Source: Acidobacteriota bacterium
GTDB lineage: Bacteria; Acidobacteriota; UBA4820; DSQY01
NCBI GenBank assembly: GCA_037444825.1
Contig: JBBILR010000002.1
Location: 27,984-91,983, forward strand
Reading direction: 5' to 3'
Length of the DNA stretch: 64,000 bases
Both the position numbers and the translations under genes were made by a program. Below the pieces are notes generated by a model that saw nothing but the letters and a program-made list of their open reading frames with translations, was not told the DNA's origin and did no database searches. Of this stretch, positions 368-24,079 are shown in pieces. How positions within the stretch are numbered: the first letter of the stretch is position 1; each line of letters opens with the position of its first letter.

Positions 368-447
368 GTGCCCCGCCGGGGGGAATCCGGCGGCCAAGGA
401 AGGCTTTGGGGGGCCGGTTCCGGAGGAGGCGGCCCCGGGGGGAGTCT

Positions 448-3192: not shown

Positions 3193-3304
3193 GGCGCCTC
3201 CCGCGGGGGAAAAGGTAGCACGGGGCGGGGGAGGGGGCAACGCGGGAGGGCGGGGGCGAAAAAAAGGGGCCCCCGAAGGGGCCCCCAGGGGAAAAGACTC
3301 GGAC

Positions 3305-6300: not shown

Positions 6301-9300
6301 CCCCGGCGTCGGTCCCCCGGTAGTACTTCCCGCCCGTCTGGTCGGCGATCCGCTGCATCACCGCGTCGTCGGGGCTTCCGAAGCCGATGGTGTAGATGGG
6401 GATGCGGGCCTGCTGGGCGTAGGCGATGATCTCCGCCTCGGTGTGGGAACTGCTGTTGTCCTCCCCGTCGGTCATGGCGAGGACCGCCTTGCGGCCCGTC
6501 TTGGCGGCGGTGGCCACGAGGGCGTCATAGGTGGCGTCGAAGAAGGCGGTGGAGCCTCCGCTGTAAGCGTACCCGTCGATGGCGGCGTAGAGGGCCTGCT
6601 TGTCGGCGGTGAAGTCGATCACGAAGTCCACCTGCGAATCGAAGCCCCAGACCGCCACCTGGTCCGACGCGCCGAGGAGGCCCACGAAGGTCTTGGCCGC
6701 GTTCTTCTCCAGCTGGAACTGGGAGGAGCCGAGGCTGCCCGAGTTGTCGATGGTGATGCCCACGTAGAGGGTGGATCCGCTCTGTCCCGCGCCGGTCACG
6801 GTGAAGTTCTGCGGCACGCCGTCCTCGCTGACGCAGAAGGAGGAGGCGGTGAGCCCCTGGACCGGCTGGCCCTGGCCGTCGAAGACGCTGACCACCGCCT
6901 GCACCGTGGGGCACCGGGAGGGGTCCACCTGGGCGATGGCGAGGGTGGGGCAGGTTCCCGACGCCCCGCACCGGAAGGTCCCCTGGACCCACCGGGTGCA
7001 CCCGCCGGTGGTCACGCAGAACCGGAGGTCGTGCAGGGCGCCGTCGGTCTTGGTGGTGGTGTAGGAGACCACGTACTGGCTTCCGAGGAGGGTGCCGATG
7101 GCGGAGAGGATCTGCTGGAGGTTCTGGGAGGAGGCCGAGGCGAAGAAGAGGCCGCCCGTCCTCGCGGCGATGTCCTGAAGGACGGCCTGGTCGGCGCTCC
7201 CGAAGGCGATGGTGAAGACGGGGATGCCGAGGCTCTGCGCGTAGAGGACGAGCTCGTCCTTGCCGTGGGAGGAGGAGTTGTCCTCCCCGTCCGTCATGGC
7301 CACGACGGCCTTTCGGCCGGACTTGGAGGCGGCGTTCGTGAGCGCCGCCCATACCCCGTCGTAGAAGGCCGTCATCCCCCCCTTGTAAGGGTAGCCGTCG
7401 ATGGCGGCGAGCAGGGTGGGTTTGTTCGACGTGAAGTCCTGGACCAGGTCCACCGTGCTGGTGAAGCCGTACACCGCGCACTGGTCGCCGGCGCCCAGCA
7501 GGTTCACCAGGGCCTTGGCGGCGGTCTTTTCGTCGTTGAAGGCCGACGAGCCGAGGGAGCCCGAGTTGTCGATCACCTGCGCGAGATACAGGGAGGTCCC
7601 GCTCTGGGAGGCGGTGGTCACCGTGAAGTTCGTGATGGAGGCGCCGTCCTCCTCGACGCAGAAGGCGGAAGAGGAGAGGCCCGTGACGGGGTTCCCGGTG
7701 GCGTCCCGGACCGTGAGAATTCCCCTCACCGTCGGGCACGCGGAGGTGTCCACCTGGGCCAGCGTCACCTGGGGGCAGTTGCCCCCGCCGGAGGTCCCGC
7801 ACCGCATGGTTCCCGAGGCGTAGGTGGTGGGGCAGCCGGGGAGGCTCTGGAGGCAGACGTCGAGGGCGTGGCTCTGGCCGTCGTTCTTCGTGGTGGTGTA
7901 GGTGAGGACGTACTGGTTGTTGATGACGTTGCCGATGTCGGTGAGGATCTGCTGGAGGTTCTGCGAGGTGGCCGAGGCGTAGTAGCGGCCGCCGGTCTGG
8001 GTGGCGATGGCGGTGAGGACCGCCACGTCCGCCGAGCCGAAGCCGATGGTGAAGACGGGGATGCCCAGGCTCTGGGCGTAGGCGATGAGTTCGGCCTGGG
8101 AGTGGGAGGAGGAGTTGTCCTCCCCGTCGGTCATGGCGATGACGGCCTTTCGCCCCGTCCTCGGCCCCGTGAGGGAGAGGGCCTGGTAGACCGCGTCGTA
8201 GAAGGCCGTCATCCCCCCCTTGTAGGGGTACCCGTCGATGGCGGCCTGGAGGGCGGCCTTGTCGGTGGTGAAGCCCTGGACGAGGTCCACCTGGCTCGTG
8301 AACCCCAGGAAGGCCGCGGCGTCCCCGGCGGCCAGGAGACCCACCAGGGCCTCGGCGGCGTTCTTCTCGTCGGCGAAGGCCGAAGAGCCGAGGCTTCCGG
8401 AGTTGTCCACCACCAGGGCCGCCTGGAGCGCGTTTCCGCCCCCGCTGCCGGTGGTGAGGGAAAAGCTCTGGGAGACCCCGTCCTCCGAGAGGCAGAAGTT
8501 GGAGGCCGTGAGACCCGTCACCGCCTGTCCCGAAGGGCTGGTCACCGTGACCACGACCTTCACCGTGGGGCAGGAGGCGGTGTCCACCTGGGAGACGGTG
8601 AGGGTGGGGCAGCTCCCGCCGGCGCCGCAGGTGAAGGAGCCCTGGGCGGTGAGGAGGGAGCAGCCGGGGGCCTGGACGCAGGGTTCCAGCGTGTGGCTCT
8701 GGCCGTCGGCGCGTGGGGTGGTGTAGGTGATCACGTACTGGTTGTTCATGACGGCGCCGATGGCTTGGAGGATGGCCTGCAGGTTCCCCGAGGAGGCGGC
8801 GGCGTAGAAGCGGCCCCCCGTCTGGGTGGCGATGGCCTCCAGGACCTGGGTGTCCGCGCTACCGAAACCGACGGTGAAGACGGGGATGCCGAGGCTCTGC
8901 GCGTAGGCGATGAGCTGGGCCTGGGAGTGGGAGGAGGAGTTGTCCTCCCCGTCGGTCATGGCGACGACGGCCTTCCGGCCGTTTCGGGTGGAGGTGTTGG
9001 AGAGGGCCTGGTAGACCGCGTCGTAGAAGGCCGTCATGCCGCCCTTGTACGGGTAGCCGTCGATGGCCGCGGAGAGGGCGGCCTTGTCGGCGGTGAAGTC
9101 CATCACCAGGTCCACGGCGCTGGTGAAGCCGTAGACCGCCGCCTGGTCGGAGGCGCCCAGGAGGGCGATGAAGGCCTCGGCGGCGGCTTTCTCTTCGTGG
9201 AACGAAGACGACCCCAGGCTGCCGGAGTTGTCCAGCACCAGGGCGGTGTAGAGGTCCCCTCCCCCCGACGAGCCATGGGTGACGGTGAAGTTCGTCACGG

Positions 9301-10666
9301 GGACCCCGTCTTCGCTCAGGCAGAAGTCGGAAGCGGTGAGCCCCGTCACCGCCCCCCCGGCGGCGTCGAGGACGCTCACCACGGCCTTGACGGTGGGGCA
9401 GGCGGAGGTGTCCACCTGGTTGAGCAACAGCGTGGCGGGGCAGGTGGACTGGCAGCCCGCCGGCACGTTCACGTGGCCGGGAACGGTCTTCGTGCCGGCG
9501 TTGGTGGAGGAGACCTGAATGGTGTAGGCGAGGTCCCCGGTGACCGCCCCGCTGGCGCTGACCTGCCAGGAGAGGAGTGCGGAGGAGCCGAGGGGGAGGT
9601 CCCCCACCGTCTGGGTGGCGCTGCCGGCGGCCAGAGACAGGCCCGCCGGCAGGGTCAGCGTGGCGGAGAGCCCCGTCACGGTCCCGCTGGAGCCGGAGAG
9701 GGTGTTGGAAAGGTACAGGGACACGGTGAAGGGGTTGGGGGAGAAGAGGTGGTTGACGCAGTCCAGGTTGGAGGGGGCCGTGAGGGCCGTGGCCACCGGA
9801 GGGACGGTGTCCACCGCGATGGACCCCAGCCCGTAGTAGGTTCCGAAGGTGAGGCTCGACCCCGGGGCCAGCGCCCGGTTCTCCCAGTAGACGGCGTAGG
9901 CCGTGTCGTAGATGGTGAACTGGGGGTTCACGGTGTAGTCGAAGTCTTGGTCGTACAGGTGGGCCCACCCGGCCACCTGGAAGCGGTCCGGAGGCAGGGC
10001 CACCAGGCCTCCCAGGAGGGTGCCCTGGCAGGTGGTGGTGGGGTTGTAGAGGTCGTCGAAGACGTAGAAGTACGGCGGCAGGGAGGCGCCGGTCCACTCC
10101 CGCTCCTGGGCGATGGAGCCGGTCCCGGGGACCTGGAAGGGGGCGTTGTCGTTGGCCCCGATCTTGGTGTCGAGCATGATGCGGCAGCCCACCGTGTGCG
10201 AAACGGAGTCCAGGTTCTCCACGGTGTAGGAGACGAAGTAGGCGTCCTGGCGCCCGGTGGCGGTGCTGGTCACCAGCGTGATCCGCTGGCGGACCCGGAG
10301 GGGGCCCGTCCCCAGGTACCAGACGCCCTCGTTGGTCTGGCCGTTGTTGGTGGGGGGCTGGACGAGGGTCCCGAAGGAGTCCTCGTTGGTGTACACGGTG
10401 CCGTCCACCTGGATGGAGGAGAAGGAACTCCACGGGTAGGGGTGGCCGTAGAGGATCATGGGCCCGCCGGGGACGCCCATGGTGAACTGGCCCGAGGTGT
10501 CGTCGAGGGCCACCTCGATGTACGGGGACCCCGGCCCCCACGAGAGGGGCCTCGGCGGGCCGGGCCGAAGGGCCTCCTTCCCGCCGCCCGCCGCGAAGGC
10601 GGCGAAGGTCCCGGCGAACGCCGACAGGAGGAGCACCGCCGCACGCGAAATCCGACGCATTCTCAT
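3305..10666 (-). CDS. giant secreted multidomain protein (2454 aa): signal peptide, ~380-aa N-terminal domain, 4x [beta-sandwich + von Willebrand factor A domain with DxSxS MIDAS], 1 PKD, Ig-like domain, 7-bladed RCC1-like beta-propeller, 4 PKD domains, C-terminal IPT/TIG-like domain
   Basis: ATG at 10666 has a GGAGG RBS 8 nt upstream and a signal peptide (MRMRRISRAAVLLLSAFAGTFAAFAAG). Four near-identical modules each carry DNSGSLGSS...TDGEDNSSSH...GIPV(F/Y)T(V/I)GFGS (VWA/MIDAS). Seven RCC1-type blades are visible (HxLxLxxDGTVWAWGxNxxGQLGDGTT), and there are repeated PKD-type WxFGDG...HxYxxxGxYT motifs. The ORF-track start at 10843 is an upstream extension without RBS. Confidence 0.85.
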   Translation of the reverse strand: MRMRRISRAAVLLLSAFAGTFAAFAAGGGKEALRPGPPRPLSWGPGSPYIEVALDDTSGQFTMGVPGGPMILYGHPYPWSSFSSIQVDGTVYTNEDSFGTLVQPPTNNGQTNEGVWYLGTGPLRVRQRITLVTSTATGRQDAYFVSYTVENLDSVSHTVGCRIMLDTKIGANDNAPFQVPGTGSIAQEREWTGASLPPYFYVFDDLYNPTTTCQGTLLGGLVALPPDRFQVAGWAHLYDQDFDYTVNPQFTIYDTAYAVYWENRALAPGSSLTFGTYYGLGSIAVDTVPPVATALTAPSNLDCVNHLFSPNPFTVSLYLSNTLSGSSGTVTGLSATLTLPAGLSLAAGSATQTVGDLPLGSSALLSWQVSASGAVTGDLAYTIQVSSTNAGTKTVPGHVNVPAGCQSTCPATLLLNQVDTSACPTVKAVVSVLDAAGGAVTGLTASDFCLSEDGVPVTNFTVTHGSSGGGDLYTALVLDNSGSLGSSSFHEEKAAAEAFIALLGASDQAAVYGFTSAVDLVMDFTADKAALSAAIDGYPYKGGMTAFYDAVYQALSNTSTRNGRKAVVAMTDGEDNSSSHSQAQLIAYAQSLGIPVFTVGFGSADTQVLEAIATQTGGRFYAAASSGNLQAILQAIGAVMNNQYVITYTTPRADGQSHTLEPCVQAPGCSLLTAQGSFTCGAGGSCPTLTVSQVDTASCPTVKVVVTVTSPSGQAVTGLTASNFCLSEDGVSQSFSLTTGSGGGNALQAALVVDNSGSLGSSAFADEKNAAEALVGLLAAGDAAAFLGFTSQVDLVQGFTTDKAALQAAIDGYPYKGGMTAFYDAVYQALSLTGPRTGRKAVIAMTDGEDNSSSHSQAELIAYAQSLGIPVFTIGFGSADVAVLTAIATQTGGRYYASATSQNLQQILTDIGNVINNQYVLTYTTTKNDGQSHALDVCLQSLPGCPTTYASGTMRCGTSGGGNCPQVTLAQVDTSACPTVRGILTVRDATGNPVTGLSSSAFCVEEDGASITNFTVTTASQSGTSLYLAQVIDNSGSLGSSAFNDEKTAAKALVNLLGAGDQCAVYGFTSTVDLVQDFTSNKPTLLAAIDGYPYKGGMTAFYDGVWAALTNAASKSGRKAVVAMTDGEDNSSSHGKDELVLYAQSLGIPVFTIAFGSADQAVLQDIAARTGGLFFASASSQNLQQILSAIGTLLGSQYVVSYTTTKTDGALHDLRFCVTTGGCTRWVQGTFRCGASGTCPTLAIAQVDPSRCPTVQAVVSVFDGQGQPVQGLTASSFCVSEDGVPQNFTVTGAGQSGSTLYVGITIDNSGSLGSSQFQLEKNAAKTFVGLLGASDQVAVWGFDSQVDFVIDFTADKQALYAAIDGYAYSGGSTAFFDATYDALVATAAKTGRKAVLAMTDGEDNSSSHTEAEIIAYAQQARIPIYTIGFGSPDDAVMQRIADQTGGKYYRGTDAGALQQILTDIGNLINNQYVISYDTIYTDGSVHDLEICVTYQGCTAYARAVSQCGSPCAVTCQAWAPTSAFTAVPAAFFGQAVSSCGTGGVGYEWNFGDGAPLSTLQNPTHAYLAPGTYTWTLTATATGAQPCVQTGTVTVTNATCVKPRITAHPQSQVVSPGSSVTLSVAAQGTTALSYQWYEGPSGTITSPISGATSSTYTTPAVQTTKRYWVKVTASCGSTYSQTAVLSVASNAHGWGNNNSGEVGDGTSGSDRTGPVGVLGPSAFVQVAAGSDHSLGLAADGTVWAWGNNGSGELGDGTQTPSRFPKQVQGLSNVVQVAAGINWSLALKADGTVWGWGDNGNGNLGDGTTTDRFTPVQVSGLTGVTAIAAGGYHAVARKSNGTVWAWGDNYYGQCGDGGSTDRHTPVQVSGIVTASAVAAGEHHTLILKSDGTVWACGNNADGQCGDNTTTTRRTPVQVSGLTDVTAIAAGRDHNLAVKSGGTLWVWGDNYYAQLGDGTTTDRRAPVQLPGIANASAVAAGDRHSLLIRTDHTLWAWGTNGDGQVGDGTTTTRSTPVQVTGVSGVLQADGGALHSLCVAFGVSAAATPAAGPAPLAVTLQAAATGGTPPYGYSWDFGDGNTATGASASHTYTAAGTYTAQVTATDASGYTARAATTITVSSLAVTVTASPSNPSGSAPLSVDFSCAATGGSTPYTYAWSFGDGGTGTSADPPAHTYAVPGTYAAIVTVMDSQGSVKTSAPVTVRVYSPVMARATVQPSRARVGQAVSFHVSASGGDGYFPTFTWAFGDGSSGSGANPTHAYSAPGTYTARATVYDGAGNSAQSNEVTVKVYGPVSASISGRSSAGPNVPVTFSASASGGDGHYAYAWNFGDGGTATGASVSHAWATKATYTITLTVTDGLGQTATASQTITIVDPPVIASMVKKSPPFKIVVNGSNLQQGIKVYIDGTEWTGVVYKSSTKIVLTGSTLKTTVPRGVPKTFRFVNPDGGEATTVWSW
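4558..5602. repeat. intragenic tandem repeat: seven ~150-bp RCC1-like propeller-blade units
   Basis: Seven consecutive ~50-aa units with a conserved W(A/G)WGxN...G(E/Q)(L/C)GDGTTT...P(V)QV...V..(V/I)AAG..H(S/T)L pattern. Confidence 0.75.
6118..9448. repeat. intragenic tandem repeat: four ~830-bp VWA-domain modules inside the giant gene
   Basis: Protein modules at aa 466-745, 746-1025, 1026-1300 and 1301-1575 of the ORF are highly similar over ~275 aa each. This implies ~0.83-kb direct DNA repeats. Confidence 0.8.
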
Positions 10667-10950
10667 GGAATCACCCTCCTCGGGGGAAGGGGGCGCCGAA
10701 GAGCGAAGGAATCCCCTTTCCCTCCCGGGGGGAATCTTGCAAGGACCGTTCCGCCGCCGTTCTTCGGGAAACTCCCTCAAAATGCGAGGGGATGATTCTC
10801 CGCAGGCCCCGAGGGGCGAAAAATTTTCCCGGGCCCCGTCCATTTTTCGTGGCTCCCGTCGCCGAAAAAAACCTTGTGGCTTCCCGGGGAGGGGGATAGA
10901 CTTCCCGCAAGCCTGGCGGAAGAGGGGGTAGCCCCTTGCGGGAGGAAAAG

Positions 10951-13900
10951 ATGACCGGTCCGAGGCTCAGGGCGGCGGCGGCGGTTCTGGGGCTCCTCGC
11001 CGGGCAGGCGTGGGCCGGCGGGGCGCTGCGGGTTCTGAAGGCGGGTCCCGTGGGGGAGACGGCCAACCTCGCACAGGCCGGGGAGATCCGGGTGGTCTTC
11101 TCGGAGCCCATGGTGGCCTTGGGGCGGGTGGCGGAGCTTCGGGAGGTGAGGGGGTTCTCCATCTCCCCCCCCGTGGCCGGCACCTTCCGGTGGGCGGGGA
11201 CCGACACGCTGATCTTCCGTCCCGAAACCCCCCTCCCCTTCGCAACCCGGTACGAGGTGCGGATCGGCCCCGAACTCCGGGCGGTCTCCGGGCAGAGCCT
11301 GCCGAACCCCTACGTCTTCGCCTTCACCACCCCCACGGTGAGGCTGAGGAGCGTGCGGTGGATCCGCGAGGACGGGACGGTCCGCTCGCCGGTCCTCCTG
11401 GCGGTGGCCTTCAACCAGAAGGTGGACCCCCGGCAGGTTCTGCCCCACCTCTCGCTGGCCTACCGGCCCCACGACTACGCGCCGCCCCCCCTTCCCGCGG
11501 GGGTCAAGGAGCGCCTTTCCCGGGAGGACCCGCGGGCGGTGGAGGACTACCAGTTCAAGGCCGCCGCCGCCATGCTGGCCGCCAGGTCCTCGGACCCGGT
11601 CCCCTTCGAGGCCGCGGCCTCCTGGGACGAGAAGCGATTCCCCCGGGCCCCGGAGGTGCTGGTGGTGCGAACCCGGTCGGCCCCTCCCCCCAACGCCTGG
11701 TTGGAGGTGGTGCTGGACGGGAAGGCGCCGAGCCCCGAGGGCCCCGAGGTCTCGGGGGAGGTCCAGCGGTACACGGTCCAGCTGGAACCGGCCTTTTTCG
11801 TCAAGGGTTTTCGATGCACCTACCGGTGCGTTCCGGACGGGTACAACCCCCTGGAGTTCACCGCCGACGTCCGCTTCGGCGATCTGAAGGAGGCGGTCTC
11901 CCTCTTCACCGGCGACGCCGGGGGGGGCGCCGTCCGGAAGGCCTCGCCGGAAGGGGAGGGGGAATCCTGGGATTGGCCCTCTCGGTACTGGTCCCTGGAC
12001 CGCCTGGGCCTGGAGCCGCCCCCCGCCGCCTCCTTCTTCGTCCAGGTGGACCGCGGCCTGAGGTCCGACGACGGCCAAGTCCTCGGCTACACCTGGCTCT
12101 GCGAAATGACCACCACCCACCGCACGGCCTTCTCCGCCTTCGAATCGGGCTTCGGGGTCTGGGAGGCCTCCGGCGGCCCGGTGCTCCCCCTTTCCGTCCG
12201 CAACCTCGCCTCCGTGAACCTCTGGGTCATGCCGCTGAAGCTGGGGGAGCTCCTGCCGGCGGTGCGGCAGCTGGCGGTGCGCCCCGTCTCCAAGGACCCC
12301 GACACGGGGGAGGAGGAACCGGACTACACGTGGCGGCCCTTCTCCCTTCCCCCGCCCGTCCCACCGGTCTTCCGGCGCCTGAAGACCCCGGTGGACCGCA
12401 CCGCCTTCGTGGGCCTGGACCTCTCGCCCGCGTTGAACGAGAAAGGCAAGGGACTTTCGTGGGTGGCGGTGAAGAACGGCGAGGCCATCCCGGGGGCGCC
12501 CTTCGCCGCGGAACCCCCGCTCAAGGCCTCCCTCATCCAGGTCACCGACCTGGGCCTCACCGTGAAGGATTCGCCCCAGGGCTTCCTGGTCTGGGTCACC
12601 CGCCTCTCCGACGGGACCCCCGTCTCGGGGGCCTCCGTGGCCGTCTGGAAGCCGGACGGGAGCCGGGTCTTCGAAGGCGTCACCGGCGCCGACGGCACCG
12701 TCCTCACCCCGCCCCTCTCCCTTCGGGACCCCGAGAACGGGTGGGACCTCTCCTTCGTGGTCTCGGCGGAGAAGGACGGCGACACGGCCTACCTCTGCTC
12801 CGACTGGAACGAGGGCCTGGAGCCGTGGGAGTTCGGGGTCGGTTACGACCTCCACGAGCAGAAGCCGGTGCTGAGGGGGCGGGTCTTCCCCGACCGGGGC
12901 GTCTACAAGCTCGGCGAGGAGGTCCACCTGAAGGCGGTCCTCCGAAGCGACACGGCCTCCGGCATGAAGGTCCCCCCCGAAGGGACGGAGGCGGCCCTCC
13001 TCGTGAGCGACAGCCGAGGAGGCAAGGTGGCGGAGCGTACGGTGGCCCTGGACGCCTTCGGGGCGGCGGAGGTGGTGGTGAAGCTCCCCGAGGAGGCGCC
13101 CCTGGGGACCTACACCGTCACGGCGGAGGTGAAGGGCCACCACCGGGAGGTGCGGGACGCCTTCCTGGTGGCGGCCTACCGGAAGCCCGACTTCCGCGTG
13201 GACGCCGCCCTCGGGGCCGAGCGGCCGGTGGCGGGCGTCCCCCTCCTGGGGACGGTGACGGGGCGGTACCTCTTCGGCGCCCCCATGGCGGGGAGGCCCT
13301 GCCGCTTCTCCGTGACGCGGCGGAGGCTCACCGGAGCCACCCCCGCCGTCACCCAGCGGTACCCCGAGGGGTGGATCTTCGGCGAGGGGACGGACCGGTG
13401 GGACTCCCGCGGGGAGGAGACCGTGAAGGAGGCCGACGGGACCCTGGACGCCCAGGGGACCCTCCGGGTGGAGGTCCCCACCGGGGACGGCCAGGGCCTC
13501 TCCTACACCTACACGCTGGAGGGGACCGTCACCGACGTCACCCGCCAGACCCTCTCCGGGCGGATCTCCGTTCCCGTCTACGCCGCGCCGTTCTTCGCGG
13601 GCCTCAAGGACCCGCCGTTCTTCGTGGACGCGGGCAAGGACCTGGTGACGGAGGTCCTCACCCCGGACCTCTCGGGGAACCCCGTGGAGGGCCTCTCCGT
13701 CTCCCTCAAGCTCGTGCAGGTCCAGTGGCACGCCGTGCGGAGGGCCGAGGGCAACGGCTTCTACACGTGGGAAACGGAGCGGAAGGAGGTGGAGCGGTGG
13801 ACGGGGAAGGTGACCTCCGCCGCCCGGCCGGTGGAGGTCCGGATCCCCGTGGAGCAGGGGGGGTACTACCTCCTCCGCGCGGAGGCCGCCGACGGCGAGG

Positions 13901-16788
13901 GAAGGGTCTCCCGCTGCGGGGCCTCCTTCTACGCCTTGGGCGCGGGCTTCACCGCCTGGGAGCGGTACGACCACAACCGCATCGACCTCGTCCCCGAGAG
14001 GAGCACGTACCGGCCCGGCGAGACGGCGCGGATCCTCGTCAAGTCCCCCTGGGAGAAGGCCAAGGCCCTCCTCACCGTGGAGCGGGAAGGGGTCCGCACC
14101 CACCGGGTCTTCGACCTCGTCTCCACCCAGCAGACGGTGGAGGTCCCCGTGGGGGAGGGCGACGTGCCCAACCTCTACGTCTCGGTGGTCCTCCTCAAGG
14201 GCCGGACGGAGGCCTACACCGGCGAGGACGTCTCGGACCCCGGCAAGCCGGCCTTCCGCGTGGGCCTCGTGGAACTCCACGTGGAGAACCTCGTGAAGCG
14301 GCTCTCGGTGGCCGTCTCCAGCGACGCCGACGAGTACCGCCCCGGCGCCCGGGCCGTCGTCTCCGCCGTGGTCACCGACGGGGCGGGAAAGCCCGCCGAG
14401 GCCCAGGTGACCCTCTGGGCGGTGGACCACGGCGTCCTCTCCCTCACCGGCTACCAGACCCCGGACCTTTTGCCCTCGGTCTGGGTGGACAAGGCCCAGC
14501 AGGTCCTCACCGAGGACTCCCGCCAGCGCATCGTTTCCCGGAGGGTGCTCACCCCCAAGGGGGCGGACGAAGGGGGCGGAGGAGGAATGGAGGAGGGCCC
14601 GGGGGAGGTCCGGCGGGACTTCCGGGTCCTCGCCTTCTACCTGGGTTCCCTCGTCACGGACGCCAAGGGAAAAGTTACTTCTGAAGTAACATTGCCGGAG
14701 AGCCTCACCACCTACCGGATCATGGCCGTGGCCCACGACAAGGCCTCCCGCTTCGGCTTCGGCCAGAAGGAGATCCGCACCGCCAAGCCGCTGGTGCTCC
14801 TGCCCTCCCTGCCCCGCTTCCTGGCGCGGGGGGACCGGGCCGTCTTCGGCGTGGTGGTCCACAACCGCGGCGGGTCCTCGGGCCGGGTCCGGGTGGAGGC
14901 GGAGAGCCTGGACGCCGGCCGGCTGGCCCTCGCCGGCCCCACGGTCCAGGAGGTGGATTCGGCCCCGGGCGTTCCCGGGGAGGTCCGCTTCGCCTTCGAA
15001 GCCCGCGGGGTGGGCAAAGCCCGCCTCCGCTTCCGCGCCGCCCTGGGCGGGGAGACGGACGCCTTCGAGCAGGTGCTCCCGGTGGAGGTCCTCAACGCCC
15101 CCGAGGCCGCCGTGGCCACGGGCTCCACCGAGGGTACGGCGGAGGAGGCCCTGGAGGTCCCCGGGGGGGTGGTGCCCGGCTTCGGCGGGCTGGAGGCGAG
15201 CCTGTCCTCCACGGCCCTCGCCGGTTTGGAGGAGGGGGCGAGGTACCTGGTGGACTACCCCTACGGCTGCGCCGAGCAGCGCGGCTCCGCCACCCTCGCC
15301 CTGGTGCTGGTCTCCGACCTCTCGGGGGCCTTCCACCTCCCCGGCATCGAGACGGAGAAGATCCGGGACATCGCCCAGCGGAACCTCAAGGCCCTGGAGG
15401 CCTTCCAGTGCGAAGACGGCGGATTCGTCTACTGGAAGGGCTCTTCGTGCCTCTACGCCTCCGAGGTCCTCACCGCCTACCTCCTCCACGTCTTCCAGCG
15501 GGCGCAGGCGCTGGGCTTCGCCGTGAACGAGGAGGTCCTCCGCAAGGGGTACGACTTCCTGTCCCGGGCGCTGAACCGCCCCTACCCGGTGAACGAGGGG
15601 TGGTGGCCCCACTACACCGCCTGGCAGGCCTACGCGGTGAAGGTCCTGGCCGACGGGGGCCTCACCGTGGACAGCCACCTGAGCCGGCTTTACCCGTACG
15701 CAGGCCGAATGCCGGTCTTCGGCCTGGCCTACCTGGAGGGCGCCATGGCCCGCTCCGGCCGCTTCCAGGCCGAACGGCAGGACCTGTTGCGCCGGATGGA
15801 CGACGCCATCCTCCCCGAGGGGGCCGGCGCCCACGTGGAGGAGCTTTCCGACCCGTACCTCCTGTGGTTCTGGAACTCCAACGTGCGCTCCACGGCCATC
15901 GTCCTCTCGGCCTTCGCCAGGGACCCCGGGCGCCGCCACACCGCCGAGCGCATGGTGCGCTGGCTCCTGGACGCACGGCGGAAGGGGAGGTGGGGCAACA
16001 CCCAGGAGAACGCCCACGCCCTGGAGGCCCTCATCGACTACTACCGCGCCTACGAGAAGGAGACCCCCGACTTCCGGGCCGCGGTCTCCCTGGCGGGGAA
16101 GACCCTCCTGGAGGAGCGTTTCGCAGGGCGGACCACCGAGGCCAAAGGGACGGCGCTGAAGATGGAGGCCCTCCACGCGGAGGCTTCCTCGGGCGCGCGC
16201 CTGCCTCTGGTGTTCTCCAAGAAGGGAACGGGCAGGCTCTTCTACACGGCGCGCCTGAAGTACGCCCTCGCCCCCGAAGGCCTTGGCCCGGTGGACCAGG
16301 GCATCGCGGTGGAGCGGCGCTACGAGCTCTACGAGGGCGACGGCGGCCAGGGGCCCACCCGCGCCTTCCCCCAGGGCCGCCTTGTCCGGGTGACCCTGAC
16401 CCTTCACCTCCCCAAGGAACGGCGGTACGTCGCCGTCACCGACCCCCTCCCCGCCGGCCTGGAGCCGGTGGAGTCCTGGTTCGCCACCACCGCCAGGGAC
16501 CTCCAGAAGGCCCCGCCGCCTTCCTCCGGGGACGAAGGGGACGAGGAGGGCGAGGGGGAGGGGTGGTTCCTCCTTTGGCAGCGCGGCGGCTTCGACCACG
16601 TGGAGCGCCGCGACGACCGCGTCCTCCTCTTCGCCACCCGCCTGGCGGCGGGCAAGCACGCCTTCTCCTACGTGGCGAGGGCCACCACCCAGGGCGTTTT
16701 CGTCGTCGCCCCCGCCCGCGCCGAGGAGATGTACAGCCCCGAGGTCTTCGGCCGCACCGCCACGGAGGTGGTGGAGGTGCTCCCGTAG
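10951..16788 (+). CDS. bacterial alpha-2-macroglobulin family protein (thioester-containing, periplasmic; YfhM-like)
   Basis: ~1945 aa. Signal peptide without lipobox Cys (LLAGQAWA|GG). Thioester motif GCAEQ at 15268-15279 inside YLVDYPYGCAEQRG, and an A2M receptor/complement-like C-terminus. Start set at the ATG with a GGGAGG RBS (10951); the 10936 ATG is also possible. Confidence 0.85.
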   Translation: MTGPRLRAAAAVLGLLAGQAWAGGALRVLKAGPVGETANLAQAGEIRVVFSEPMVALGRVAELREVRGFSISPPVAGTFRWAGTDTLIFRPETPLPFATRYEVRIGPELRAVSGQSLPNPYVFAFTTPTVRLRSVRWIREDGTVRSPVLLAVAFNQKVDPRQVLPHLSLAYRPHDYAPPPLPAGVKERLSREDPRAVEDYQFKAAAAMLAARSSDPVPFEAAASWDEKRFPRAPEVLVVRTRSAPPPNAWLEVVLDGKAPSPEGPEVSGEVQRYTVQLEPAFFVKGFRCTYRCVPDGYNPLEFTADVRFGDLKEAVSLFTGDAGGGAVRKASPEGEGESWDWPSRYWSLDRLGLEPPPAASFFVQVDRGLRSDDGQVLGYTWLCEMTTTHRTAFSAFESGFGVWEASGGPVLPLSVRNLASVNLWVMPLKLGELLPAVRQLAVRPVSKDPDTGEEEPDYTWRPFSLPPPVPPVFRRLKTPVDRTAFVGLDLSPALNEKGKGLSWVAVKNGEAIPGAPFAAEPPLKASLIQVTDLGLTVKDSPQGFLVWVTRLSDGTPVSGASVAVWKPDGSRVFEGVTGADGTVLTPPLSLRDPENGWDLSFVVSAEKDGDTAYLCSDWNEGLEPWEFGVGYDLHEQKPVLRGRVFPDRGVYKLGEEVHLKAVLRSDTASGMKVPPEGTEAALLVSDSRGGKVAERTVALDAFGAAEVVVKLPEEAPLGTYTVTAEVKGHHREVRDAFLVAAYRKPDFRVDAALGAERPVAGVPLLGTVTGRYLFGAPMAGRPCRFSVTRRRLTGATPAVTQRYPEGWIFGEGTDRWDSRGEETVKEADGTLDAQGTLRVEVPTGDGQGLSYTYTLEGTVTDVTRQTLSGRISVPVYAAPFFAGLKDPPFFVDAGKDLVTEVLTPDLSGNPVEGLSVSLKLVQVQWHAVRRAEGNGFYTWETERKEVERWTGKVTSAARPVEVRIPVEQGGYYLLRAEAADGEGRVSRCGASFYALGAGFTAWERYDHNRIDLVPERSTYRPGETARILVKSPWEKAKALLTVEREGVRTHRVFDLVSTQQTVEVPVGEGDVPNLYVSVVLLKGRTEAYTGEDVSDPGKPAFRVGLVELHVENLVKRLSVAVSSDADEYRPGARAVVSAVVTDGAGKPAEAQVTLWAVDHGVLSLTGYQTPDLLPSVWVDKAQQVLTEDSRQRIVSRRVLTPKGADEGGGGGMEEGPGEVRRDFRVLAFYLGSLVTDAKGKVTSEVTLPESLTTYRIMAVAHDKASRFGFGQKEIRTAKPLVLLPSLPRFLARGDRAVFGVVVHNRGGSSGRVRVEAESLDAGRLALAGPTVQEVDSAPGVPGEVRFAFEARGVGKARLRFRAALGGETDAFEQVLPVEVLNAPEAAVATGSTEGTAEEALEVPGGVVPGFGGLEASLSSTALAGLEEGARYLVDYPYGCAEQRGSATLALVLVSDLSGAFHLPGIETEKIRDIAQRNLKALEAFQCEDGGFVYWKGSSCLYASEVLTAYLLHVFQRAQALGFAVNEEVLRKGYDFLSRALNRPYPVNEGWWPHYTAWQAYAVKVLADGGLTVDSHLSRLYPYAGRMPVFGLAYLEGAMARSGRFQAERQDLLRRMDDAILPEGAGAHVEELSDPYLLWFWNSNVRSTAIVLSAFARDPGRRHTAERMVRWLLDARRKGRWGNTQENAHALEALIDYYRAYEKETPDFRAAVSLAGKTLLEERFAGRTTEAKGTALKMEALHAEASSGARLPLVFSKKGTGRLFYTARLKYALAPEGLGPVDQGIAVERRYELYEGDGGQGPTRAFPQGRLVRVTLTLHLPKERRYVAVTDPLPAGLEPVESWFATTARDLQKAPPPSSGDEGDEEGEGEGWFLLWQRGGFDHVERRDDRVLLFATRLAAGKHAFSYVARATTQGVFVVAPARAEEMYSPEVFGRTATEVVEVLP

Positions 16789-16920
16789 GCCGGAGGAGGC
16801 GTCAGACCGGGAACCGGTCCGGGAGGGTCCTGGAAACCGGCCCGGGACGGCCGAGGCTTCTCGGTCCCCAAGGGCCGGAAGCGGGCCTGTCGGCGGGGCG
16901 CCGGAAGGGAGTGGGCGCGC

Positions 16921-18486
16921 TCACCTCCCCCGTTCGTAGGGGGCGAAGGCGACGGTGTTGGCGCGGTAGTCGAACCAGACGGCGAAGAGGTCCAGGATGT
17001 CCCTCCGGCCGAGGATCCCGTACAGAGGGAGGCCCCAGCCGCCGCCCAGGGGGGTCACCTGCACCGTCTGCATGTCGAAGCGGGCATTTCCCAGGAGGAG
17101 GACGACGTCGGTGGCCACGCCGCTGGTGAAGGCGCCGGAGAGCCCCGACCCCGTCTGGGCGCCGTAGCGGCCCGAGTTCACCCGGACCCCCGCTTCGGCG
17201 GCCCTTTCCGCCGCGATGAAGGTGGTGTAGGCGCCGGTGTCCACCATGAAGAAGCGCTCCGGCTTTCCCTGGAGGGTGGCGGCGACGAAGGGCCGGTCGT
17301 AGGGCCAGAGGGACTTGACGGTGAAGGCCTCCGGTCCCAGGGCCTCCTTCGGCGGGGTGCCGCTGGGGTGGAGGACCAGCTTGCTCCGCCGCCGGTCGTA
17401 GAGGAGACCGTGGTGCCGGAAGAGGGAGAGGGGCACGATGCCGCCCACCTCCTTGAAGAAGTCTTCCTTCTCGCTCAGGACCAGCGCGGGGACGTTGCGG
17501 AGGGTCAGGGGCCCGAAGGCGAGGCGGTCGAGGATCACCCAGTTGGACTTCTGGGCCCCGAGGTAGCCGAGGCCGAGGTAGGAGGCGGTGGCCACCGGCT
17601 GGAGGCCCAGCTCCTTGACCCACTTCGGGCTCAGAAGGAGGGTGTCGGAACCGGAATCGAGGAGCACGAGGCGGTCCTTGGTGCCGTTCACCGCCACCGG
17701 CGTCACCACGCGGGTGGAGGTGGTGACGCTGCCGGTCCCCGCGTCCCCGAAACCCCAGGTGAGGGCCGAGACGTCCCGGTACTCCGACTTCTCCTTGAGG
17801 GGAAGGGCGACGGGGTACGAAGCCTCCAGCTTCTCGTCGAAGAGCCGCCCCTTTCCCACGGCGCCGTAAAGGCGTTTCAGCCCCTCGTACTCGTCCTTTC
17901 CGGCGGGGTCGGCGGCCAGAAGCGCCTCGGCCCGCATGACCCCCTCCTCCCCCGTCTTCGCCAGGCCGAGGGCCAGCCGGAGGAGCTCCGGCGAGGGCTT
18001 CTCCGAAAGCGACAGGGTCCTTTCCAGGAGGGCCGACGCCTCCTCTTCCTTGCCCGACGCGCGCAGGGCGAAGACCGCCCGGGCGCAGGCCCGGTCCCGC
18101 CAGGAGGGGTTGGAGAGGAGGACCGTCCAGTTCTGCACCGCCTGGGGGACGAGGAGCATCTGGAAGGCCGCCTCGCCCGCGTAGTACCGCAGCTCCGGCC
18201 GGTCGGGAAAGCGCGAGGCCCAGGGGACGGCCATGCGGGCCGCCTCCTGGGGCCGGTTCAGGCCCAGGAGGGCCCGGATCTTCCCGGCGGCGTAGCCGGG
18301 GTTGTCCGGTTCGGCTTGGAGGCCCGCTTCGGCGGACTGCAACGCCTCCTCGTACTTTTCCCCCTCCAACAGGAGCCCGATTTCCTGGAGCCGTCCCGGC
18401 GGGAGGGTCCCCCCCGTCTGGGCCCAGGCGGGGAATGCCAAGATGAACGCCAGAAGGGCCTGAAGAAGCCGTGGTCGGAGCGCCAT
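16921..18486 (-). CDS. secreted TPR-repeat protein with two tandem retropepsin-like aspartic protease domains
   Basis: Signal peptide (MALRPRLLQALLAFILAFPAWAQ), a TPR-like helical N-half, then two clan-AA catalytic motifs preceded by hydrophobics: LVLLDSGSDTLLLS (DSG at 17650-17658) and FFMVDTGAYTTF (DTG at 17233-17241). Confidence 0.75.
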   Translation of the reverse strand: MALRPRLLQALLAFILAFPAWAQTGGTLPPGRLQEIGLLLEGEKYEEALQSAEAGLQAEPDNPGYAAGKIRALLGLNRPQEAARMAVPWASRFPDRPELRYYAGEAAFQMLLVPQAVQNWTVLLSNPSWRDRACARAVFALRASGKEEEASALLERTLSLSEKPSPELLRLALGLAKTGEEGVMRAEALLAADPAGKDEYEGLKRLYGAVGKGRLFDEKLEASYPVALPLKEKSEYRDVSALTWGFGDAGTGSVTTSTRVVTPVAVNGTKDRLVLLDSGSDTLLLSPKWVKELGLQPVATASYLGLGYLGAQKSNWVILDRLAFGPLTLRNVPALVLSEKEDFFKEVGGIVPLSLFRHHGLLYDRRRSKLVLHPSGTPPKEALGPEAFTVKSLWPYDRPFVAATLQGKPERFFMVDTGAYTTFIAAERAAEAGVRVNSGRYGAQTGSGLSGAFTSGVATDVVLLLGNARFDMQTVQVTPLGGGWGLPLYGILGRRDILDLFAVWFDYRANTVAFAPYERGR

Positions 18487-18614
18487 GCGTCCCCCTTTCC
18501 CCCGGTGGTTCACGGGTCGGGGTTCATTGTACACCAGAAACCGGCGGCCGTTGTGAGCCGAGGCCCCCGGGAAGGGTCTCCGGCTCGGCCTCGGGGTTGT
18601 TGTACCCTGAAAAC

Positions 18615-20951
18615 ATGGGCGAGAAGGCGAAGCGGTGGGTCTGGAGGGCGGCCGCCGGGGCGCTCCTGGCGGCGGCCGGGGCGGCCTACGTGCGGTGCGG
18701 CCCCCTCCCCCCGTCGCTCCTGGACCCCTCCCCCCGGCTTTCCACGGCGGTGCTCGACCGGAGGGGCCGCCCCCTCTACGAACGCCTCTCCGCGAAGGAG
18801 GCGCGGAGCGCCTGGCTGGATCCCGGGAGCGTCCCCCCCCTCGTGGAGGCGGCCACGCTGGCGGCGGAGGACCACCGCTTCCACCGCCACGCGGGTCTCG
18901 ACCCCTGGGCGCTCCTCCGGGCGGCCTGGAACGACCTCCGGGCCGGGCGGATTCGGGAGGGGGGCTCCACGCTCACCCAGCAGGCGGTGAAACAACTCAC
19001 CGGCCGCCCCCGAACGATGGCCGGAAAGGTGCGGGAGATGGTCCTGGCCCTTCGCCTGGAGCACCGCCTCGAAAAGCGGGAGATCCTCGCCCTTTACCTG
19101 AACGTGGCGCCTTACGGGAACCAGGCGGAGGGGATCGGAGAGGCGGCCCGGACCTACTTCGGCTGCCGCCCTTCCCACCTGACGCCCGCCCAGGCGGCCT
19201 TTCTGGCGGGTCTTCCCCAGCGCCCCTCGGCCTTCGACCCCTACCGCCGGCTCGGCGAAGCCCGCGCGCGCCAGCGGTGGGTCCTTCGCCGTATGCGCGC
19301 CCTCGGGTTCCTCGACGATGCGGCCTACCGGCGGGCCCTTTCGGAGCGGCTGGTCCTCCGGCGGCCCGACCGTCCCTTCCAGGCGCCCCACTTCGTCCAG
19401 CGGGTCCTGGAGGCGTGCCCGCCGGGCACGAGGGAGGTTCGAACGACCCTGGACCTGGACCTCCAGCGGAAGGTCCTTCAAATCCTTCAGGCGGGGCGGA
19501 TGGCGCGGGAGGCCCACGGCGCCTTCGCCGCCGCCGTGGTGGTGGTCCACAACCCTACGGGGGAGATCCTGGCGTACGAGGGGTCGGGGGACTACTTCGA
19601 CGCCGCCCACTCGGGGGCCATGGACGGGGCCCGGACCCCCCGCCAGCCGGGGTCGGCCCTCAAGCCCTTCACCTACGCCCTGGCCTTCGACGGCGGGTAC
19701 ACCCCCGCGTCGGTCCTCCCCGACCTCCCCCAGCACTTCCCCACCGCCGAGGAGGGGGTGGTCTACAGCCCCCGGAACTACGACGGGCGCTTCCGGGGGC
19801 CTCTGCGGGCCCGGGAGGCGCTGGGGGGATCCGAGAACGTTCCGGCGGTGGTCCTCCTCTCGCGGCTGGGGGCGGGACGTCTCCTCTCCCTCCTTCGGGA
19901 GCTGGGGCTCACGACGCTGGACCGGTCGGCTTCCTACTACGGCTTCGGCCTCACCCTGGGGGACGCCGAGGTCCGCCTCGACGAGCTGTGCGGCGCCTAC
20001 GCCGCCTTGGCGCGGGGAGGCCTCCACCTTCCCCTCGTGGACACGCTGAAGCGGGAGGGGGGGGAGGAAGCCGGCGGGCAGCCCCCTTCGCCTTCCCCGC
20101 CCCGCCGCCTTTTCTCTCTCCTGGCCGCCTACTGGACGGCCCACATCCTCGCCGACCCCGAAGCCCGGGCCTGGGCCTTCGGCCGCGGGGGAAGCCTCGA
20201 CTTCCCCTTCCCGGTCTGCGCCAAGACCGGAACCTCTGAGGCCTACCGGGACAACTGGTGCCTGGGCTTCACGCGGGAGGTCACGGTGGGGGTCTGGGTG
20301 GGCAACTTCGACCGCACGCCGCTGAAAGGGGCCTCGGGGGTCACCGGAGCCGGCCCCCTCTTCCACGAGGTCCTGCTGGAGGCCGAGCGCCACGTCCGGG
20401 GGGGACTGCCCGGCCCCCTGGACCCCTTCCCGGTGGACCCGCCGGAGGGGCTGGCCCCGGTGGAGGTGTGCGCCCTCTCGGGGGGGGCGGCGGGCCCCTC
20501 CTGCCCCTCCCGCCTTTCCGAGTCCTTTCCTCGGGAGCGGGTCCCGAAGCCCTGCGACTGGCACCTTCCGTCGGGCCGGGTGGCTTGGCCGGCGGAGTAC
20601 CGGGCCTGGGCCCGGCGGACCGGGCGCCTCGCGGAGGAGGAGCCCCGGCTGGCCCTCCCCGCCTCCCGCCCGCCCTCGGGGAAACCGGGAGGGCCCCTTC
20701 ACCTGGAGAACCCCCCCGACGGGGCCGTCTACCTCCTGGACCCCACCCTGCCGCCGGCCTTTCAGACCCTGCCCCTCAGGGCCTCCGTCCGGGGAGCGCC
20801 CCGGCGGCTCCTGTGGACGGTGGACGGCGAGGAAGTGGGGCGGTGCTCCTCGGAGGCGGGCCTGGAGTGGCCTCTGCGCCGCGGTGAACACACCGTGGAG
20901 GTGCGGGACGACCGCGGAGCCTCCGCCCGCGCCCGCATCCGGGTGAAGTGA
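18615..20951 (+). CDS. pbpC: penicillin-binding protein 1C (transglycosylase + transpeptidase)
   Basis: N-terminal TM anchor. GT51 motifs EDHRFHRHAGLD and GGSTLTQQ. Transpeptidase motifs SALKP, SxN-like and KTGT. The C-terminal PbpC-specific domain is present. Start taken at the internal ATG (MGEKAKRWVW) rather than the ORF-track GTG at 18471. Confidence 0.88.
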   Translation: MGEKAKRWVWRAAAGALLAAAGAAYVRCGPLPPSLLDPSPRLSTAVLDRRGRPLYERLSAKEARSAWLDPGSVPPLVEAATLAAEDHRFHRHAGLDPWALLRAAWNDLRAGRIREGGSTLTQQAVKQLTGRPRTMAGKVREMVLALRLEHRLEKREILALYLNVAPYGNQAEGIGEAARTYFGCRPSHLTPAQAAFLAGLPQRPSAFDPYRRLGEARARQRWVLRRMRALGFLDDAAYRRALSERLVLRRPDRPFQAPHFVQRVLEACPPGTREVRTTLDLDLQRKVLQILQAGRMAREAHGAFAAAVVVVHNPTGEILAYEGSGDYFDAAHSGAMDGARTPRQPGSALKPFTYALAFDGGYTPASVLPDLPQHFPTAEEGVVYSPRNYDGRFRGPLRAREALGGSENVPAVVLLSRLGAGRLLSLLRELGLTTLDRSASYYGFGLTLGDAEVRLDELCGAYAALARGGLHLPLVDTLKREGGEEAGGQPPSPSPPRRLFSLLAAYWTAHILADPEARAWAFGRGGSLDFPFPVCAKTGTSEAYRDNWCLGFTREVTVGVWVGNFDRTPLKGASGVTGAGPLFHEVLLEAERHVRGGLPGPLDPFPVDPPEGLAPVEVCALSGGAAGPSCPSRLSESFPRERVPKPCDWHLPSGRVAWPAEYRAWARRTGRLAEEEPRLALPASRPPSGKPGGPLHLENPPDGAVYLLDPTLPPAFQTLPLRASVRGAPRRLLWTVDGEEVGRCSSEAGLEWPLRRGEHTVEVRDDRGASARARIRVK

Positions 20952-21145
20952 CCGCCGGCGTGCCTCTCCGGCCACGCCCCTCGCTCCTTCGCGCTTCCGG
21001 GAAAGGGTCCGTCCTGGCGGGAAAGGAAACTCGCCTCAGGCCTCTCCGGGTTCGCCCAACTTCGTTCCGCCGGTCTTTCGTGCGGTAGAATGGTCGCCCG
21101 CCCCGGCGCGGGTGCCGCCGGGGCCATGGAGCGGAGGAGGCTTTC

Positions 21146-21628
21146 GTGAACGCCGTCGCCGTGTACCCCGGGTCCTTCGACCCGGTCACCAACGGCCACG
21201 TGGACCTGGTGTTGCGAGGGGCCGGCATCTTCCGGAAGGTCGTCGTGGCCGTCCTCCGGAACACGCAGAAGCAGTCGCTCTTCTCCGTGGAGGAGCGGGT
21301 GGCCCTCCTCCGGGAGAGCCTCGCGGGGATGGAGCGGGTGGAGGTGGACGCCTTCGACGGGCTGCTGGTGGACTACGCCCGGTCCAAGGGGGCCCGCCAC
21401 ATCCTTCGGGGGATCCGGGCCGTCTCGGACTTCGAGTACGAGTTCCAGATGGCCCTCATGAACCGGAGGCTGGCCCCCGACGTGGAGACGGTCTTCCTCA
21501 TGCCGAGGGAGGAGTACACCTACCTCTCCTCCCGGCTGGTGCGGGAGGTGGCGCTCCTGGGCGGGCCCCTGGAAGGGCTGGTGCCGCCGCCGGTCCTGGC
21601 GATGCTGGAGAAGAGGTTCCCCCGATGA
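21146..21628 (+). CDS. coaD: phosphopantetheine adenylyltransferase
   Basis: 160 aa; AVYPGSFDPVTNGHVD nucleotidyltransferase motif. GTG start with a GGAGGAGG RBS. Confidence 0.9.
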   Translation: MNAVAVYPGSFDPVTNGHVDLVLRGAGIFRKVVVAVLRNTQKQSLFSVEERVALLRESLAGMERVEVDAFDGLLVDYARSKGARHILRGIRAVSDFEYEFQMALMNRRLAPDVETVFLMPREEYTYLSSRLVREVALLGGPLEGLVPPPVLAMLEKRFPR

Positions 21629-22816: not shown

Positions 22817-23917
<1,101 letters not shown>

Positions 23918-23938
23918 GGGCACCTCCGAGAGGGAGGG

Positions 23939-23944
23939 ATTATA
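23939..23944 (-). promoter_or_regulatory. perfect -10 hexamer TATAAT for the DHS-like gene (no good -35)
   Basis: Minus strand reads GGC TATAAT CCCTCCCTCTCGGAGGTGCCC ATG; the hexamer sits ~22 nt upstream of the start codon. Confidence 0.35.
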
Positions 23945-23988
23945 GCCCTGGCGGAAGGGAGAGGCCACCGGAAGGGGCGTGGGGCCGC

Positions 23989-24014
23989 AAAAAAGGCTCC
24001 CCGTACGGGGAGCC
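23989..24014 (-). terminator. probable intrinsic terminator downstream of erpA (hairpin + U6 on the minus strand)
   Basis: GGCTCCCC-GTAC-GGGGAGCC perfect 8-bp stem (23995-24014), followed on the minus strand by TTTTTT (complement of AAAAAA at 23989-23994). Confidence 0.45.
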
Positions 24015-24079
24015 GAGCAGAGGAGGGGGATCCTCATGGGAACGGGTCTTGCGCCCCCGCCTCCCCCGGAGGGGAGGGT

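Follow-up and report, generated by a model that had tools for sequence, protein, structure and literature searches.

We analysed a 64,000-nucleotide stretch of DNA from an Acidobacteriota bacterium (assembly GCA_037444825.1, contig JBBILR010000002.1, forward-strand positions 27,984 to 91,983; hereafter the window), in which the genes for a bacterial alpha-2-macroglobulin (A2M) and for the penicillin-binding protein PbpC are separated by an opposite-strand gene for a secreted-type aspartic protease. The type-I A2M/PBP1C pair combines a periplasmic thioester protease trap with a peptidoglycan synthase that has a presumed role in repair. Each of the three genes is found as an open reading frame (ORF; coordinates in Table 1), and the same products, with identical ends, are already called as genes on a 159-kb NCBI contig in the public record. 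The gene calls bear out the geometry described in the initial annotation, with both flanking genes on the plus strand and the protease gene on the minus strand between them. The A2M and pbpC genes lie 1826 bp apart, pbpC being the next gene on the same strand. With this spacing and an opposite-strand gene between them, the two cannot form one operon here. Transcription of the protease gene converges with that of A2M and diverges from that of pbpC, so that the gene is co-transcribed with neither.

The region has a GC content of about 70%, with no compositional shift across the protease gene. No terminal or flanking repeats were found around that gene, the repeat search giving only short matches at chance level. 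Thus nothing points to a recent mobile insertion, and recent horizontal or mobile insertion of the protease gene was rejected on these grounds. A consensus scan of positions 10500–21200 gave no promoters and one terminator-like site, against 5.7 expected, a result that is uninformative for an organism of 70% GC. With this same limit, the scan found no sigma-70 consensus in the intergenic region upstream of A2M, no terminator consensus in the convergent A2M–protease spacer and no promoter consensus in the divergent protease–pbpC spacer. The initial annotation had given pbpC a 130-bp divergent control region; its geometry stands (128 bp), while the consensus scan lent it no promoter. Divergent spacers aligned from six loci were poorly conserved and had no motif in common. 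The convergent spacer folded as RNA no better than shuffled sequence (z = −0.70), and Rfam had no match anywhere in the window. A Shine-Dalgarno-like GGGAGG is read at 10940–10945, ahead of the A2M start.

Table 1. Features of the A2M–protease–pbpC locus in the window, and gene neighbours of distant protease orthologues at other loci (L numbers).
Feature	Position	Strand	Basis or remark
Upstream intergenic region, 284 bp	10667–10950		divergent from giant minus-strand gene 3305–10666
Type-I (thioester) bacterial A2M, 1945 amino acids (aa), N-terminal Big_5 Ig-like domain	10951–16788	+	nine Pfam domains
A2M predicted signal peptide, aa 1–22, signal-peptidase-I type AWA/GG site	10951–11016	+	translation; predicted cleavage site from sequence pattern
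Candidate bait region, ~aa 1185–1224, ...SRRVLTPKGADEGGGGGMEEGPGEVRRDF	14503–14622	+	between A2M_BRD and A2M Pfam domains
Thioester motif GCAEQ, aa 1439–1443, in TED domain	15265–15279	+	translation
Convergent intergenic region, 132 bp, A2M stop to protease stop	16789–16920		sequence reading
Secreted-type TPR + single-chain tandem retropepsin-like (clan AA) aspartic protease, 521 aa	16921–18486	−	Pfam, alignment, model
Retropepsin-like lobe 2, ~aa 388–516; catalytic D416-T-G-A at 17233–17241	16939–17325	−	second Asp_protease_2 stretch
Retropepsin-like lobe 1, ~aa 253–375; catalytic D277-S-G at 17650–17658	17362–17730	−	best Asp_protease_2 stretch, 263–338
TPR-like all-helical domain, ~aa 30–210, 11 helices	17857–18399	−	TPR_19/TPR_14; model block pLDDT ~91–97
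Protease predicted signal peptide, aa 1–22, MALRPRLLQALLAFILAFPAWA/Q (...PAWA/Q)	18421–18486	−	translation; predicted cleavage site
Divergent intergenic region, 128 bp, protease start to pbpC start	18487–18614		sequence reading
Penicillin-binding protein 1C (PbpC), 778 aa, N-terminal membrane anchor	18615–20951	+	TIGR02073 + Pfam
BipA	L001, L014, L100/101		neighbour of distant protease orthologue
PilZ + tandem paralogue	L006/7/9, L012		neighbours of distant protease orthologue
Asp-tRNA synthetase	L097		neighbour of distant protease orthologue
Gene of no assigned function	L002		neighbour of distant protease orthologue
D-Ala-D-Ala ligase (ddl), head-to-head; NlpC/P60 gene ~5 kb away	L095 6791–9623, L099 6792–9620		distant protease orthologue, 44–47% identity
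MltA lytic transglycosylase (mltA), head-to-head	L096 6055–9005		distant protease orthologue, 44–47% identity

The A2M product scored above the Pfam gathering thresholds for Big_5, bMG3, MG2, bMG5, bMG6, A2M_BRD, A2M, TED_complement and bMG10, and its residues 526–1937 matched the Salmonella and E. coli A2M structures 4u48, 5a42 and 4rtd in phmmer searches (E ~1e-31). A CxEQ thioester sequence was found at the position aligned with the window GCAEQ in 50 of 50 related A2Ms. The domain set, the structural matches and the motif confirm the gene as encoding an A2M of the thioester-competent type. A flexible stretch rich in Gly and Glu is the candidate bait region given in Table 1. Related A2Ms seen at full length have about 1900–1950 residues, about equal to the window protein, and all have the conserved N-terminal sequence that yields the Big_5 match in the latter.

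The N-terminus of the window A2M reads MTGPRLRAAAAVLGLLAGQAWA/GG (LLAGQAWA/GG), and its first 23 residues contain no Cys. The initial annotation had set this lack of a lipobox against the lipoprotein YfhM. The observation is correct for the window protein but is not specific to this locus, since none of ~30 related acidobacterial A2M N-termini (the loci among L004–L094 with that end visible, e.g. L018 at ~4200 and L075 at ~4248) has a canonical lipobox, most of them having ends of the A-x-A/Q or D type. The missing lipobox is thus a trait of the acidobacterial A2M family and not of the window locus. The A2M orthologues in L004, L010 and L011 likewise have no Cys in the signal peptide. A few related A2Ms carry strings like LFAC, LSTC or LATC, the meaning of which is uncertain. 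In the window signal peptide, LLAGQ (LAGQA, aa 16–20, 10996–11010) resembles the classic lipobox LAGC with Gln for Cys, a likeness that may be due to chance or may be left over from a lipid anchor since lost. Judging from its N-terminus, the window A2M is most likely a soluble periplasmic protein with export of the signal-peptidase-I type.

The product of the plus-strand pbpC gene is a true PBP1C, scoring 534.8 bits against TIGR02073 PBP_1c (cut-off 494.2), with the Pfam domains Transgly, Transpeptidase and BiPBP_C. It carries the transglycosylase motifs EDHRF and GGSTLTQQ and the transpeptidase motifs SALK, SEN and KTG; EDHRF, SALK, SEN and KTG were invariant across five orthologues. A pbpC start at 18618 was replaced by the ATG at 18615.

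Pairing of bacterial A2M with pbpC, and the lipobox, have been described previously (PMC4498604, PMC3328433), and the E. coli A2M (ECAM, from yfhM-pbpC) has a lipoprotein box that anchors it to the inner membrane (PMC3328433). The window A2M has the same MG/BRD/TED/MG10 set and CxEQ thioester as ECAM and Salmonella SaA2M, and in those systems too the partner is a true PBP1C and both proteins are located in the envelope. The differences lie in the distance of 1.8 kb and the opposite-strand gene between the two window genes, and in the A2M itself, which is ~300 residues longer than ECAM (1945 vs 1653 aa), with its N-terminal Big_5 domain, and has a signal peptide of the signal-peptidase-I type in place of the ECAM lipobox, a trait common to all related acidobacterial A2Ms checked.

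The third gene encodes the TPR protein with a signal peptide and two fused retropepsin-like motifs that had been annotated from the sequence. Pfam placed TPR_19 (also TPR_14) in its N-terminal half and Asp_protease_2 on two stretches, with 71.8 bits for Asp_protease_2 (cut-off 24.3) and 52.3 bits for gag-asp_proteas (cut-off 28.2); profile hidden Markov model searches thus matched the A2M, aspartic protease and Transgly/Transpeptidase families above their cut-offs at this locus. The two catalytic motifs, DSG (277–279) and DTG (416–418), were invariant in 19 homologues with identity down to 37%. Invariant residues were L276, D277, S278 and G279 in lobe 1 and D416, T417, G418 and A419 in lobe 2. 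The C-terminal side of lobe 2 has the sequence YGILGRRDILD, resembling the retroviral GRD/N motif, in which G490, G493, R495, L498 and D499 were also invariant. A hydrophobic N-terminus ending in A-x-A was conserved in the homologues. The protein scored 33.4 bits against TIGR02281 (cut-off 57.95), the PerP-like clan AA DTGA subfamily, which we take to be the family of Caulobacter PerP-type secreted retropepsin-like proteases, and therefore falls outside it. PE-PGRS_C gave 18.5 bits (cut-off 33), and the pepsin family PF00026 had no match in the protein. Similarity of the TPR part to PA4667/LbcA was not significant (E = 0.26–0.32) and was not used.

An AlphaFold2 model built from the alignment of 19 homologues had a mean predicted local distance difference test score (pLDDT) of 84.8 and a predicted template modelling score of 0.83. 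In the model, residues 1–29 have pLDDT below 50 and are followed by eleven helices (31–210) and then by two beta-rich lobes. The top Foldseek match in the PDB was 9iy9 (E = 3e-18, 510 aligned columns), a Bacteroides fragilis ‘putative endopeptidase / exported protein’ released in 2025. Tethered single-chain HIV-1 protease dimers came next (probability 1.0, template modelling score on target ~0.7), followed further down by plasmepsins and the PE_PGRS domain of Rv0977 (4ehc), with TPR structures matching the N-terminal part. In the model, the two lobes are packed like a retropepsin dimer. Each lobe supplies one catalytic Asp (DSG, DTG) in a single chain, so that the protease would act as a built-in dimer. 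The model thus describes an exported protein in which a TPR domain is followed by a retropepsin ‘dimer’ that occurs naturally as one chain.

The secreted retropepsins RloA1–3 of Pseudomonas aeruginosa (PMC12239564) and APRc of Rickettsia (PMC4140852) share with this protein the clan AA fold, the D-T/S-G motifs and export to the envelope; RloA proteins are implicated in cell shape and envelope stress. RloA, APRc and PerP-type enzymes are, however, single-domain proteins that must homodimerise, whereas the window protease joins two diverged lobes (DSG + DTG) in a single polypeptide and has, N-terminal to them, a TPR domain of ~180 residues that those enzymes lack. The structure 9iy9 is, like the window protease, a single exported chain, and phmmer aligned its residues 166–246 with lobe 1. 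The two differ in sequence (13% identity, sequence E-value 0.002), in length (420 vs 521 aa) and in the N-terminal part, which is shorter in 9iy9. Pepsin-like A1 proteases and PE_PGRS Rv0977 likewise have one chain with two lobes and one catalytic Asp in each, but the window protease belongs by sequence to Asp_protease_2 and finds closer structural matches in the tethered retroviral dimers. Among 1.84 billion representative proteins, the family has 44 members (clusters at 50% identity) at E <= 1e-30 and 508 at E <= 1e-3. A literature search found no paper on the TPR + Asp_protease_2 architecture or on this family, and none on 9iy9. The protease family is therefore rare and uncharacterised.

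To place the arrangement among related genomes, an alignment of PbpC orthologues was scanned against metagenome contigs, giving 80 loci at 47–67% identity, and these were searched by tblastn with the three window proteins. The related loci are from metagenome-assembled genomes (MAGs) of uncultured Acidobacteriota or Thermoanaerobaculia. A2M was found directly upstream of pbpC, on the same strand, wherever a locus had enough DNA on that side, the exceptions being L015, L016 and L087. Both the A2M and the pbpC gene ends were visible in 70 loci. In 69 of these, the gap from A2M stop to pbpC start had a median of 5 bp (range −28 to 194, estimated), and no protease gene lay within 10 kb; the exception was L015, with a gap of ~6.9 kb. 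No protease homologue was detected in L016–L094, even at E <= 0.01. From this distribution, contiguous A2M-pbpC appears to be the ancestral state. The two loci with no A2M upstream differ in what they show: in L016 (pbpC 62% identical) the ~400 bp upstream of pbpC are GC-poor non-coding sequence at the contig end (1–420), and in L087 (55%) more than 5 kb upstream of pbpC (1–5334) have no A2M match.

The same question was approached from the protease gene. The contigs of 35 protease homologues were inspected, and a contig scan with an alignment of 7 closer sequences gave 7 loci; an exact search for the window protease itself matched no recorded contig. The protease gene was found between A2M and pbpC in L003 and L011 (82% identity), in L004/L005 and L010 (67–68%) and in L015 (70%); the L003 contig ends inside the A2M gene. 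L098 (57%) has the same head-to-head protease–pbpC junction on a contig that ends before any A2M could show. The identity of the linked-clade proteases to the window protein was 57–83%, and the head-to-head junction was the sole constant one, being kept in all of these loci. The gap between A2M and protease was variable. It is empty in the window, in L011 and, up to its contig end, in L003; it holds a DUF4440/SnoaL gene in L004 and L010, and in L015 a DUF4440 gene, a small ORF, an ABC ATPase gene and a large unannotated ORF (presumed permease). L008 and L098 show the ABC part, which in L098 is preceded by a GntR-family gene. L008 (71% protease identity) was considered as an unlinked counter-example and dropped: it carries the L015-type ABC genes and is collinear with L010 and L015 until homology is lost ~255 bp from its contig end, so that its pbpC side is not visible. 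The PbpC orthologue of L098 (181–2046, minus strand) has 621 residues, matching residues 24–591 of the window PbpC, and no BiPBP_C domain; the gene could be truncated or frameshifted, or the contig could be wrongly assembled.

Protease orthologues at or below 53% identity (38–53%) had neighbours unrelated to A2M or pbpC (Table 1), and neither gene was found at any protease locus outside the linked clade. In a neighbour-joining tree, the pbpC-linked proteases (the window, L003, L011, L004/5, L010, L015 and L098, together with L008) grouped together in a single clade, within which L098 is basal and which has the PilZ-linked proteases as its sister clade. The monophyly of these proteases indicates that the arrangement arose once. 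The A2M–protease–pbpC order is not conserved beyond this one monophyletic acidobacterial clade. The outgroup L012 has PilZ, the protease gene and convergent ABC genes with no pbpC, so that the protease–ABC block is older than the junction with pbpC.

Several further observations concern the protease family. Pairs of tandem-retropepsin paralogues, adjacent or one gene apart, occur in L006 (7094–10455), L007 (10001–13362), L095 (8001–12502) and L099 (8001–12724); in the tree, the second copies of L095/L099 branch deep and those of L006/7/9 stand beside the PilZ-linked proteases. Two M16 (insulinase-type) peptidase genes stand together beside the pbpC–protease junction in L004 (3756–7434) and beside PilZ–protease in L012 (5172–8865), and this pair appears to mark the older syntenic frame of the protease gene. 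Genes for MscS-type channels are found downstream of protease orthologues in L013 (4121–5281, minus strand) and L014 (12102–13022, minus strand), which calls to mind the effect of the RloA retropepsins on hypo-osmotic tolerance in Pseudomonas (PMC12239564).

On either side of the three genes, the window contains other coding sequence. The gene divergent from A2M (3305–10666, minus strand) encodes a giant secreted-type protein of 2453 aa, the N-terminus of which resembles a signal peptide and which has four VWA domains, an RCC1-repeat propeller, an Ig domain and five PKD domains. Downstream of pbpC lies a homologue of deoxyhypusine synthase (Pfam DS; 22817–24037, minus strand), with a counterpart in L003 at 4625–5725. 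Ahead of it are an aminotransferase gene and a CTP_transf_like gene, the latter annotated in L003 and represented in the window by a candidate matching ORF of 160 aa; this DS/aminotransferase neighbourhood is conserved in L003.

We consider it fairly likely that the split goes back to one rearrangement, confined to a single lineage, of the known type-I A2M/PBP1C pair, and that the protease is not a cognate partner of the A2M. A contiguous A2M-pbpC operon would have been interrupted a single time, in the ancestor from which a small, Thermoanaerobaculia-like clade of Acidobacteriota descends. The break would have put a pre-existing block between the two genes, consisting of the opposite-strand protease gene, the convergent ABC set and the DUF4440 gene, and in the sub-lineage of the window the other inserted genes would have been lost later, leaving the protease gene alone. 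The A2M would still be exported to the periplasm and, through its GCAEQ thioester, would trap proteases that cut its bait region, and the membrane-anchored PbpC would now have a transcription start region to itself. The third protein would be an independent envelope protease, in which the TPR domain probably selects protein substrates, probably among proteins of the cell envelope or peptidoglycan.

Several points weigh against so neutral an account. The protease–pbpC junction persists in loci with as little as 57% protease identity, whereas each of the other inserted genes has been lost from some lineages, and this persistence could come from selection for co-regulation and not from neutrality. 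The ddl (L095/L099) and mltA (L096) neighbourhoods are two more independent head-to-head peptidoglycan contexts, so that the protease may be tied functionally to cell-wall enzymes, possibly with PbpC among them. The synteny sample is small (~8 linked contigs, 7 independent contexts), and sequence alone cannot show that functional coupling is absent.

These points bear on an alternative in which the protease is coupled to PbpC and cell-wall upkeep and not to the A2M. The two genes would be governed by one control region lying between their starts. Enzymes of peptidoglycan metabolism, or regulators of these, would be brought in for proteolysis by the TPR domain, much as in the TPR-adaptor/protease pairs NlpI-Prc and LbcA-CtpA, and A2M, PbpC and protease would together make up an envelope-maintenance neighbourhood. 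We regard this as possible but rather unlikely. Across the linked clade nothing but the head-to-head pairing with pbpC is constant, and in three of the seven independent contexts the protease gene has a peptidoglycan gene as its head-to-head neighbour (pbpC; ddl, which has an NlpC/P60 gene ~5 kb off; and mltA). Leaving out the prompting context, the count is two of six, which at a frequency of 1–2% for peptidoglycan genes corresponds to p ~0.002–0.006, a post-hoc estimate of our own on a small sample for a category set after the data had been seen. The other four contexts (BipA, PilZ, AspRS and the gene of no assigned function), however, have no cell-wall neighbour, the pbpC junction arose only once, and the poorly conserved divergent spacer with no common motif also argues against shared control. 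The MscS channel genes that flank the protease gene in L013 and L014 would fit a cell-wall role. So would the RloA1–3 enzymes, which affect cell shape, hypo-osmotic tolerance and sensitivity to peptidoglycan-directed antibiotics, including beta-lactams, and for which the authors suggested possible regulation of peptidoglycan synthases or hydrolases (PMC12239564); but RloA proteins are single-domain homodimers without TPR, with homology to the window protease at the level of the clan. Overall, the tally of contexts gives a modest lead towards a cell-envelope role of the protease. A bolder version, which we think improbable, would make the TPR + tandem retropepsin a new class of periplasmic regulatory protease for peptidoglycan enzymes that was recruited to A2M/PBP1C in this clade, where it would, for example, process or degrade PbpC and be limited by the A2M in a three-part envelope-repair circuit.

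The initial annotation had proposed a protease/anti-protease module. In a dedicated module of this kind, the A2M would inhibit or buffer the neighbouring protease or the protease would activate the A2M in the manner of a convertase. The three genes do lie within 2–9 kb of each other across the linked clade, both proteins have signal peptides and so would meet in the periplasm, and A2Ms trap proteases of all catalytic classes (PMC8712716). A module, however, predicts repeated co-occurrence of A2M and protease, and with the occurrence confined to a single clade of single origin this reading is unsupported by synteny, the check that the initial annotation itself had named: 69 of 70 related A2M-pbpC loci have no protease gene, and for the majority of protease orthologues there is no A2M gene nearby. 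Even where the genes are linked, their adjacency is not kept, other genes separating them in L004, L010 and L015, half of the linked loci, and their convergent orientation means that they are not co-transcribed. The motifs of A2M and protease are, moreover, alike in linked and unlinked loci (CxEQ in all 50, lipobox in none). We therefore judge the module very unlikely. The chance that a misassembled metagenome bin joined the protease to A2M and pbpC is negligible. The sequences do come from MAGs, and L008 loses homology close to its end, but the same order and orientation recur in independent assemblies (Logan L003; JGI L004, L005 and L015; NCBI MAGs L010 and L011; ENA L098), and a second assembly has a 10.7-kb contig with proteins clustered at at least 90% identity to all three window proteins. 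This agreement of independent contigs effectively refutes an artefact.

With the split read as a single rearrangement, the locus mainly confirms the known pairing of A2M and PBP1C, which is strongly conserved in Acidobacteriota, being contiguous in 69 of 70 loci, and it indicates that in one lineage the pairing has outlasted co-transcription. Soluble, non-lipoprotein A2Ms appear, from their N-termini, to be the rule in the phylum. Of more use as a lead is the protease family, a rare, TPR-fused, exported single-chain retropepsin with repeated cell-wall gene neighbours. The fused-tandem, TPR-bearing form of a clan AA retropepsin appears to be undescribed, with one structural relative, the unpublished 9iy9. 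The transition from a dimer to a bilobed enzyme has long been proposed for aspartic proteases. If the link to peptidoglycan is true, the family would join the Pseudomonas RloA retropepsins as envelope regulators and would also provide a natural example of that transition.

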